This document shows, piece after piece, positions 27,001 through 30,000 of a stretch of DNA of 64,000 nucleotides. The position numbers are program-made. The first letter of the stretch is position 1. Each line of letters begins with the position of its first letter. The DNA is taken from assembly GCF_058153355.1 (NCBI RefSeq), contig NZ_CM177019.1. One strand, written 5' to 3'.

Positions 27001-30000
27001 CCGCTATCCAGGGTAATGGCTTCAAAACTCTGGCTGAAGGTCAGAACGTTGAGTTCGAAATTCAGGACGGTCAGAAAGGTCCGGCAGCTGTTAACGTAAC
27101 AGCTATCTGATCGAATCCACTGATCTGAAGTGTGAAGACACTTCAATCTCGCTATAAAGCCTCGTCGAATGCGAGGCTTTTTACTTTGTTTTATCTTCGC
27201 TCCTGGCATTCGGATATTTGCCCGCCGCGTGATTCGCGTTACACTTGCGGCCTTTAGTATCCTGCCGGAGTTGTCATGTCGTTTTCCTGTCCACTTTGCC
27301 ATCAGCCTCTCTCGCGTGAAAAAAACAGCTATATCTGTCCCCAGCGACATCAGTTTGATATGGCGAAAGAAGGGTATGTCAATCTGCTGCCCGTTCAGCA
27401 TAAACGGTCTCGTGATCCGGGCGACAGCGCGGAAATGATGCAAGCACGCCGCGCATTCTTAGATGCCGGACATTATCAGCCGCTGCGTGATGCAATTGTC
27501 ACCCAACTGCGGGAACGGCTTGATGAAAAGGCCACGGCGGTGCTGGATATTGGCTGTGGTGAAGGGTATTACACACACGCATTTGCCGATGCGCTGCCCG
27601 AAATCACCACGTTTGGCCTGGATGTCTCGAAGGTAGCGATAAAAGCGGCGGCGAAACGCTATCCGCAGGTCACTTTTTGTGTTGCTTCCAGCCACCGTTT
27701 GCCGTTTTCCGATACCAGTATGGACGCCATAATACGTATTTACGCGCCGTGTAAAGCAGAAGAGTTAGCGCGAGTAGTGAAGCCTGGCGGTTGGGTCATT
27801 ACTGCCACGCCGGGACCGCGACATTTGATGGAGCTGAAGGGGCTGATTTACAATGAAGTACATCTTCATGCACCTCATGCAGAACAACTGGAAGGTTTTA
27901 CATTACAGCAGAGTGATGAGTTGTGTTATCCGATGCGTCTTCGCGGTGACGAAGCCGTCGCGTTATTGCAGATGACGCCGTTTGCCTGGCGTGCGAAGCC
28001 AGAAGTCTGGCAAACGCTGGCAGCAAAAGAAGTGTTTGACTGCCAGACGGACTTTAATATTCACCTCTGGCAGCGCTCTTATTAACCGTGGTAGTGCGTC
28101 CAGAGGATCTGGACGCCGATGCCGATCAGCACCAACCCGCCGAGAATTTCTGCTTTTTTCCCAATAATTGAGCCAATAAAGCGACCAACCATCATCCCTA
28201 ATGTCGACATAATCAAGGTTGCACAACCAATGGCCAATGCGGTCGCGATAATGTTGACCTGCAGGAAGGCGAGACCAACACCCACAGCCATGGCATCCAG
28301 GCTGGTGGCAATCGCGGTGGTTACCAGTAGCCAGAAACCGTGTCGACGGCGCGGTTCTTCATCTTCATCATCTGCGCCACGAAAACCCTCAATAATCATT
28401 CGCCCGCCGAGGAATATCAGCAGCACAAACGCAATCCAGTGGTTCCATTCAAGGACAAACCGGCTGGCTAACATGCCCATTCCCCAGCCGATCAGCGGCG
28501 TCAGGGTTTCGACGGCACCAAAAATAAGGCCAGTTCGCAAAGCTTCAGAAAATTTCGGTTTATGGAGGGTGGCACCTTTACCGATTGATGCAGCAAATGC
28601 ATCCATCGACATACCAAACGCAAGAAGAACAGTAGCAGTGATATTCATGACAACGTCCTGACCGGGGTATCCATAAAACACATCATCGCCCCCAGCAAAC
28701 ATGCATACATGAACAACAAGCCGCGATGGGTTTTCGCGTTCATGCAGGCATAGCGATTGATGTGCATATGGTCTCGCCTGACTGAAAGTGTTCAGTCCGT
28801 ACGTGCCACGTTTTGCAACGAGTATGTTGACACGTACATTTCCGGAATCTGGAAATCGGCTACTCCCCAAATGAGAGCGCAACCTTAACATATTTTGAGA
28901 ATATAAAACAACTGTTGGAATATATTATTTCATCGCTTTATTGATAACGATTGTCATTTAGATTTATATATCAATGAAACGTTAAAATAAATAACAAATA
29001 AGGGAAGGGGTAATATAGCCTAAGCTATGTCTGATTATTAAAAATACACTAAACATAGCTTTGGCTAAATTGATAACTTATTGAGTTGAAACGAGAAGCT
29101 TATAAATTTTTTCTAGATCGTCGATATTTCGAACGCGAATTAACAGCCGGCGCTGTTCTAATTGCATCACCAACACGCCATCTTCCGACAAGTTCATCGC
29201 TTTGATTCGGCTATATTCAATCCAGACATTGGCGAAGAAAAAACCTTTTTGTTTAAAGATGATCTTCGGAACGCGGATCCAGAATATATAAAAACCCATC
29301 AGAGCCAGTGCACTTAATAACCATGTTGTTATTAGCGCGCCATGATTCGTGACGTTGTTATAGATAAGAATGACAATCAATCCGACGAAGATAACGCTAT
29401 CGATGCGACCACGCCGGAGCAAAGGAATTGCCAGCAGGGTGGGGCCGTTACGGCGGGGCATGATGAACTGATCGTAGATCGCGAAGGCCAGGAGTGCGGC
29501 GATGAAAAGAATCAGTACCAGGTCCGTGATTGTCATTAATCCTCCAGATAAAAAAACGGGGCCAAAAGGCCCCGGTAGTGTACAACAGTCTTACAGTCCC
29601 AGCAGGCCGCAAGCATACCCCGCGATACCGATGACGAAGAAGCCAACGATGATCCACAGCGGATTAACTTTTTTGCGCAGCAGCCACATACAAGCAAAGG
29701 TCAGCAGTAGCGGTACCAGGCCCGGCATTAACTGGTCAAGAATAGTCTGGACAGTGGTAACGTGTTCTTTGCCCGTCTGGTCAGTAATGCGAGAGACAAC
29801 CAGCGGGATGTTGACATGTGTCCACTTGTTAACCAATGCCCCCATGACAAACAGGCCGAGAATAGACGCCCCTTCCGTCAGTTTTTGCAGGAAGCCGCCA
29901 CCCATATCTTTAACGATATCGATACCTTTGGAGTAACCATACGCTACGCCGTAGTAACGGGTTGCCAGACGCACCAGGTTAAACAGGATGAAGAACAGAA

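Follow-up and report, generated by a model that had tools for sequence, protein, structure and literature searches.

A long open reading frame running into mntP probably reflects a stop-poor Mn2+ riboswitch leader rather than coding sequence

Dambach and co-workers reportedly described a Mn2+ riboswitch for mntP of E. coli K-12 in 2015. This element occupies the 5' UTR of mntP (yebN), is assigned to the Rfam family RF00080 and lies in the same locus as the leader studied here, manXYZ-yobD-mntP-rlmA-cspC (Prakash et al., 2024, PMC11647493; Stephen et al., 2025, PMC12153347). Experiments on the K-12 leader, which is nearly identical to ours, have shown that it binds Mn2+ and that expression is switched on (PMC9603457; PMC11647493; PMC12153347). 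Mn2+ binding stabilizes the metal-site loop L1 and helix P1.1, which turns on mntP translation; translation in turn protects against Rho-dependent termination, both in the leader and in the early ORF, and the switch point comes when the transcript is about 205 nt long (literature including PMC12153347 and PMC11647493). The alx (ygjT) riboswitch of E. coli carries an aptamer of the same yybP-ykoY family and is a translational ON switch of a Mn2+ exporter gene (PMC12153347).

In the window, by which we mean the whole stretch of 64,000 nucleotides that was analysed, the genes follow the E. coli-type order manZ-yobD-mntP-rlmA-cspC, and mntP is encoded by the minus strand. The gene downstream of the riboswitch encodes the Mn2+ exporter MntP (PF02659, NF008546), which is the genomic setting expected of the family, and a 501-nt query spanning the mntP leader matched 5,422 of 5,426 complete E. 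coli genomes. The yobD-mntP intergenic region together with the leader is 98% identical to that of K-12. The aptamer differs by one base, in the P4 loop, whereas L1, L3, the platform helices, the Shine-Dalgarno sequence (SD) and the start codon are identical; further differences are a CCC here in place of CC in the apical loop of a hairpin insert, a G/A change 5 nt downstream of it and one change at -9. As for the reading frames, K-12 has a 27-aa upstream ORF (uORF) and a 26-codon in-frame extension of mntP, whereas here there is a 40-aa, ATGA-coupled uORF and an 81-codon extension.

This extension was the subject of an original prediction, made from the sequence alone, which held that a 269-aa ORF assigned to mntP begins 81 codons before the conserved start MNITATVLL and that a riboswitch leader was being read as coding. 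The ORF was readily recovered, since the ORF listing contains a 269-aa frame at 28082..28891 on the minus strand whose residue 82 opens MNITATVLL. With a probability of roughly 0.93, we consider the interval upstream of this residue to be the mntP 5' untranslated leader, a non-coding E. coli-type yybP-ykoY Mn2+ riboswitch in which both the long ORF and the 40-aa uORF are incidental. The 81-codon extension is an artefact and represents leader RNA rather than protein-coding sequence.

28082..28648, minus strand: mntP coding sequence, 188 aa plus stop, with its true start at ATG 28648-28646
28649..28891, minus strand: in-frame extension of 81 codons in the ORF track, non-coding as judged from frame comparisons and shuffles
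28889..28891, minus strand: ATG opening the 269-aa ORF, 5' of the inferred RNA start and overlapping a putative extended -10 element
28700..28702, minus strand: in-frame ATG 18 codons before the true start, in the 3' arm of the insert hairpin, source of a 206-aa 'MntP'
28649..28874, minus strand: mntP 5' UTR of 226 nt (225 nt in K-12), placed by numbering fit and alignment with K-12

The position of the RNA 5' end bears directly on the ATG that opens the 269-aa ORF. In the numbering of the K-12 leader, the conserved L1 adenosine is A11 and one L3 adenosine is A48 (PMC12153347). Fitted to the window sequence, this numbering places an adenosine at both 11 and 48 only if RNA position 1 corresponds to 28874. 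The K-12 mntP UTR is said to measure 225 nt in the work of Waters in 2011 and of Dambach in 2015. From the published numbering and this length we infer that the RNA starts at about 28874, so that the ATG at 28891-28889 sits some 15 nt upstream of the transcript. By its sequence, TGtTAAGGT (28890-28882) reads as a putative extended -10 element that the ATG of the 269-aa ORF would overlap; a sigma-70 consensus scan of the sequence did not call an mntP promoter.

The prediction had named two yybP-ykoY hallmarks within the extension, and both are present on the minus strand, GGGGAGTAGC at 28868-28859 and CAGGCGAGACC at 28780-28770. It had also proposed an Rfam scan, and RF00080 (Manganese, yybP-ykoY) does match 28780..28881 on the minus strand with E = 2.5e-9, although its 42.4 bits are 2.6 bits short of the gathering score of 45; the match stops at 28780 and leaves the 3' GGCGAGACC strand outside. 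We do not count this sub-threshold score, which is typical of the subclass and a property of the model instead of this sequence, against membership, because the experimentally studied K-12 mntP leader, at 41.6 bits, also scores below 45, a value reached by only one of six enterobacterial leaders scanned, that of Cedecea. The aptamer and its parts are as follows.

28765..28874, minus strand: yybP-ykoY Mn2+ aptamer, RNA nt 1-110, from the 42.4-bit RF00080 match and pairing in 78 leaders
RNA nt 2-8 with 104-110, minus strand: P1.1, the outermost aptamer helix
28868-28860, minus strand: L1, metal-site loop, GGGGAGUAG
RNA nt 15-17 with 97-99, minus strand: P1.2
RNA nt 19-37, minus strand: P2
RNA nt 38-44 with 70-76, minus strand: P3.1
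28830-28822, minus strand: L3, metal-site loop, UCAACAUAC
RNA nt 53-58 with 63-68, minus strand: P3.2
RNA nt 78-95, minus strand: P4

This structure was written from the window sequence and evaluated on the mntP loci of 80 species-representative Enterobacteriaceae genomes, from which 78 distinct leaders were aligned. Both metal-site loops, L1 with its 3' GAGACC strand and L3 (GUCAACAUAC), are present and are invariant or nearly so among these leaders. Standard pairs occupy 92.6% of cells, a share that falls to 25-45% once the 3' partners are shifted by 1-3 columns, and compensatory changes on both sides were found at 25 pairs, with none of 500 shuffles reaching the observed measures. Covariation is seen in every aptamer helix but the outer part of P1.1, notably in P2, P3.1 and P4, the last with double changes at all six of its pairs, and the test supports an architecture of two coaxial legs that meet in a four-way junction (P1.1, P1.2, P2, P3.1, P3.2 and P4). 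As aligned, P1.1 is poorly paired (60%), since an additional 5' nucleotide in E. coli-type leaders shifts the register, CAUUUGG/CCAUAUG versus GUCGUUGG/CCAUAGAC. The RF00080 match together with helices that covary across 78 Enterobacteriaceae leaders upholds the claim that a riboswitch leader was read as coding, and what is conserved in this leader is RNA structure and not a peptide.

Downstream of the aptamer, RNA nt 111-226 would comprise the expression platform and the ribosome-binding site (RBS), with nt 1-110 folding as the four-way junction.

28678..28764, minus strand: expression-platform helix, RNA nt 111-197, in which ACACAUCA-AUCGC pairs with GCGAU-GAUGUGU
28700..28752, minus strand: variable hairpin insert in the platform loop, 53 nt (inverted repeat I3), which folds on its own
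28728..28730, minus strand: CCC within the apical loop of the insert hairpin, where the alignment shows CC in K-12
28671..28675, minus strand: UAUGG, alternative partner for the P1.1 3' strand CCAUA (28771-28767)
28656..28667, minus strand: CCCCGG (28667-28662) followed by the SD AGGA (28659-28656)

The platform helix is paired in 97% of cells across the 78 leaders and shows double-sided changes at 10 of 10 pairs. The insert that it encloses is absent in 35 species and elsewhere measures about 21, 37 or 52 nt; the inserts each self-fold into a hairpin, and their sequences are unrelated across genera. In the OFF state that we propose, UAUGG would capture the P1.1 3' strand CCAUA when Mn2+ is absent and lengthen the platform helix downward, and the freed 5' UUGGGG would then pair with CCCCGG, 3 nt upstream of the SD AGGA. 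The first of these pairings can form in 66-78 of the 78 leaders, depending on the position, in a motif so invariant that covariation is uninformative. The second, between UUGGGG of L1/P1.1 and CCCCGG, is pairable in 100% of cells with one-sided changes only, and both appear in unconstrained minimum-free-energy folds of the Salmonella and Klebsiella leaders. The CUGGGGG of the platform loop could equally pair with CCCCGG, and the data do not discriminate between it and UUGGGG. Pairing of the mntP SD with the anti-SD is predicted at -4.4 kcal/mol. Because thermodynamic folds with the aptamer enforced or free gave no consistent difference in P(unpaired) at the RBS, it is from the literature and from conserved complementarity that the ON/OFF model draws its support; the unclear change in RBS accessibility is in line with the 'dynamic RBS' reported for this riboswitch (PMC12153347).

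How, then, did a structured leader come to hold 81 open codons? The prediction had offered chance or a short regulatory uORF, and of these chance is strongly favoured: it gains from the indel relative to K-12, from the variable open lengths and from an ATG upstream of the RNA 5' end, while the uORF loses by a start codon found in 11 of 78 leaders and by a varying frame and length. When the 243 nt were shuffled 20,000 times with dinucleotides preserved, the same frame stayed open in 4.4% of the shuffles and some frame in 12%. The frame upstream of the mntP start is open for 26 codons in K-12 and four other Escherichia representatives, for 43 codons in E. albertii and for anything from 3 to 86 codons across 80 Enterobacteriaceae species, and the 269-aa form exists in databases as two automatically called Logan contigs only. 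The frame is open in this strain because one extra C in the hairpin loop brings the stop-free frame of the aptamer into phase with mntP (GAAAACCCAUCGCGG here and GAAAACCAUCACGG in K-12, by alignment). The 269-aa ORF would accordingly be a by-product of a stop-poor leader, this one-C insertion and a chance ATG in the promoter -10. The inserted base falls in the loop AAACCCA, closed by the stem CGCGA/UCGCG, and folds and analysis of the insert showed no consequence of the K-12 differences for the predicted RNA structure; a single RNA-neutral loop indel can thus make or break long 'ORFs' in a stop-poor leader. Of the 5,426 complete E. coli genomes, 919 (about 17%), O157:H7 among them, carry the 59-mer with CCC unchanged and 1,671 carry the corresponding K-12 58-mer; most of the others have CC with a G variant.

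Could MntP nevertheless be made with an N-terminal extension, of 206 aa in total from ATG 28702 or 269 aa from ATG 28891? The frame upstream of the MntP start is open, every Escherichia leader examined has an ATG at -54, and the 206-aa form carries the name MntP in several NCBI records. We nevertheless regard such an isoform as extremely unlikely, given that ATG 28891 lies upstream of the inferred RNA 5' end and that ATG 28702 lies within a hairpin arm and has a negligible SD (-1.5 kcal/mol); frame 0 of the transcript has a TTG at RNA nt 5 and then no ATG, GTG or TTG until the ATG at -54. The protein families also speak against it. The 188-aa MntP matches the NCBIfam equivalog NF008546 over positions 1-188 of 188 with 413 bits, the profile match starting at MNITATVLL, and Pfam PF02659 with E = 1.7e-55, whereas the 81-residue extension matched nothing in Pfam or NCBIfam. 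In addition, the N-terminus MN[ILV][TS]AT is kept in 80 of 80 species, whereas the residues upstream of it are unconserved and their frame is broken between genera, and the K-12 RefSeq start is at MNIT. A different proposal is that the scarcity of stops is itself selected, for instance so that stray ribosomes run through the leader and keep Rho off. The leader does hold four stop triplets where shuffles hold 8.4 +/- 2.1, a nominal depletion (P about 0.03) in leaders so related that they amount to essentially a single observation, and 38 of the 78 leaders have one wholly open frame. This latter pattern is expected, because if four stops fall at random among three frames, at least one frame escapes them in about 56% of cases. 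Moreover, the open frame lacks a usable start codon, its phase relative to mntP is random (10, 15 and 13 leaders in phases 0, 1 and 2), the 78 leaders show no frame-specific protection from stops, and the distant leader L068 is undepleted, with 10 stops observed and 9.4 expected; selection on stop content accordingly has a probability close to nil. We therefore return to chance openness of a non-coding leader as the reading that we prefer, and turn to the short ORF within it.

28645..28767, minus strand: 40-aa uORF MHINRYAC...TLS, a PGAP hypothetical protein, whose TGA overlaps the mntP ATG (ATGA)

The PGAP entry for this uORF is WP_000547919.1, in an identical genome, and gene callers annotate the peptide on at least 1,000 contigs. 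A functional regulatory role would require that it be translated while the aptamer is open and that it either feed ribosomes to mntP through the ATGA or shield the leader from Rho. Several features would suit such a role: the SD-like AGGCGAG 5 nt upstream of the uORF AUG has a predicted anti-SD pairing of -4.4 kcal/mol, equal to that of the mntP SD, the stop/start overlap in the CCC haplotype is of the coupling type, and Rho acts in the mntP leader, with interplay between uORFs and Rho reported for other riboswitches. The uORF opens right after GAGACC, however, and its AUG, at RNA nt 108-110, belongs to the P1.1 3' strand. This AUG is base-paired in both proposed conformers, within P1.1 in one and within the lengthened platform helix in the other. 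The start codon is restricted to 11 of the 78 leaders (Escherichia and a few Citrobacter), others having AUAGA (42), AUAGG (16) or AUUGx (9) at this site. Even within Escherichia, where hairpin-loop indels shift the frame, the uORF is 40, 27, 23 or 58 aa long or fused in frame with mntP, and the nucleotide sequence 3' of the loop is conserved despite these shifts; the uORF varies little within species, but its frame is not conserved between them. The distance from GAGACC to the ATG is spread evenly modulo 3 (30/23/23), and a short ORF that recurs from the conserved UAUGG lies in frame +1 or frame 0 depending on the genus. The ATGA overlap, too, is confined to the CCC haplotype, and the peptide has no Pfam or NCBIfam family match. 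The 27-aa uORF of K-12 is absent from the protein collection searched, the Ribo-seq sORF supplement has no entry at the K-12 leader (19054xx-19056xx), in data obtained without Mn2+ induction and from a strain that is not of the CCC haplotype (Stringer et al., 2021), and mntP is not mentioned in a second source consulted for evidence of translation (Adams, 2021). Finally, bicyclomycin lifts the output of a K-12 leader reporter 23-28-fold (PMC11647493), and so large an effect implies that the leader is largely exposed to Rho, as predicted for untranslated RNA, and points away from protection by a uORF. Taken together, we judge the 40-aa uORF to be non-functional and incidental, and a regulatory function for it to be very unlikely. 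In CCC strains (about 17% of E. coli, including O157:H7), ribosome loading at the AUG, for example before P1.1 closes co-transcriptionally, would provide a riboswitch-independent termination-reinitiation route into mntP, a scenario that we consider highly improbable. If it were true, CCC strains might also show less Rho termination in the leader, and a single loop nucleotide would then underlie a heritable difference in basal Mn2+ efflux. The small possibility of a phenotype arising from the ATGA-coupled uORF of this haplotype is the sole residual novelty of the locus.

The mntP riboswitch is already known and well characterized, the present case is an ordinary one, and our analysis adds nothing new to its biology. 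Its practical value lies in annotation, in that ORF tracks and gene callers turn a structured leader into 'proteins' of 40, 206 and 269 aa, and since the validated E. coli element falls below the current RF00080 gathering score, masking RNAs automatically would leave such false calls in place. Among the described systems, alx shares the aptamer family but combines a three-way-junction aptamer with a multi-helix platform, an intrinsic terminator-like P6 and pH dependence, whereas the present leader belongs to the mntP type, which combines a four-way junction with a platform of one helix. The B12 and Mbox leaders of M. tuberculosis likewise place a short ORF after a riboswitch, and Rho acts on them too (PMC11260477; PMC12810186). 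In those leaders, however, translation of a conserved uORF is the step under regulation, whereas here start, frame and length are unconserved, so that the likeness between the two arrangements is superficial.

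We compared the expression platform of the mntP riboswitch, the helix that lies 3' of the aptamer, across the fetched enterobacterial mntP loci L003-L082, and two features of its loop are relevant here:

28700-28752, lineage-specific hairpin insert in the loop of the expression-platform helix
28722-28738 (-), tip of this hairpin together with the GCUUGUUGUU that comes after it, flagged as terminator-like by a pattern scan

Enterobacter, Kosakonia and Kluyvera lack the insert. Trabulsiella and Pluralibacter carry one of about 21 nt, whereas its length is about 37 nt in Klebsiella, in Salmonella and in part of Citrobacter; E. 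coli and the C. freundii group have one of about 52 nt. The stem at 28722-28738 comprises only 5 pairs and carries a mismatch in the K-12 version, and this element is therefore probably not a terminator.

Within Escherichia, the leader occurs in variants of 213, 225 and 226 nt. The species representative Escherichia sp. MOD1-EC7003 (L003) encodes an MntP protein that is 100% identical to that of the window but carries the short 213-nt haplotype instead of the 226-nt leader found here. The leader haplotype thus does not follow the coding sequence, suggesting recombination or recurrent indels. Stop triplets in the leader (28649-28874) are about half as many as dinucleotide-preserving shuffles predict (4 observed versus 8.4 +/- 2.1; P ~0.03). 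Most relatives' leaders gave similar values, but the Cedecea locus L068 did not.

Upstream of the mntP promoter, the following elements were found:

29012-29030 and 29053-29071, two palindromic boxes of the ATAGC-N4-GCTAT type, AATATAGCCTAAGCTATGT and ACATAGCTTTGGCTAAATT (inverted repeat I2)
28925-28990, 22-nt inverted repeat, 82% complementary, on either side of AAATGACAATCGTTATCAATAA (inverted-repeat search)

The box pair precedes the mntP RNA start by 140-200 bp and, judged by the MntR consensus, resembles the MntR operators that activate mntP. The pair also accounts for the weak palindromic 'mir-282' matches that the Rfam scan returned on both strands. The repeat at 28925-28990 is positioned with the MntR-like boxes on one side and the mntP promoter on the other, and by sequence AAATGACAATCGTTATCAATAA resembles a Fur box.

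At its 3' end, mntP (-) converges with rlmA (+, 27276..28085), and the two genes overlap by 4 nt (28082-28085), the palindrome TTAA being common to both TAA stop codons. Downstream of rlmA lies a cspC-type gene, named cspE by PGAP in an identical genome versus cspC in K-12, at the position where the Rfam cspA thermoregulator model matches in part (65.9 bits, 27000-27185 (+), truncated by the start of the search range); at the K-12 locus the match is full, scores 135 bits and lies on the strand opposite to mntP.

The RF00080 model match ends before the 3' GGCGAGACC strand. With the gathering score of this family set at 45 bits (Rfam 15), the experimentally studied mntP riboswitch of K-12, which scores 41.6 bits, fell under the threshold, as did 4 of the 5 other enterobacterial leaders tested (loci for K-12 and these four together: L002, 3462-3558; L022, L031, L073 and L049).
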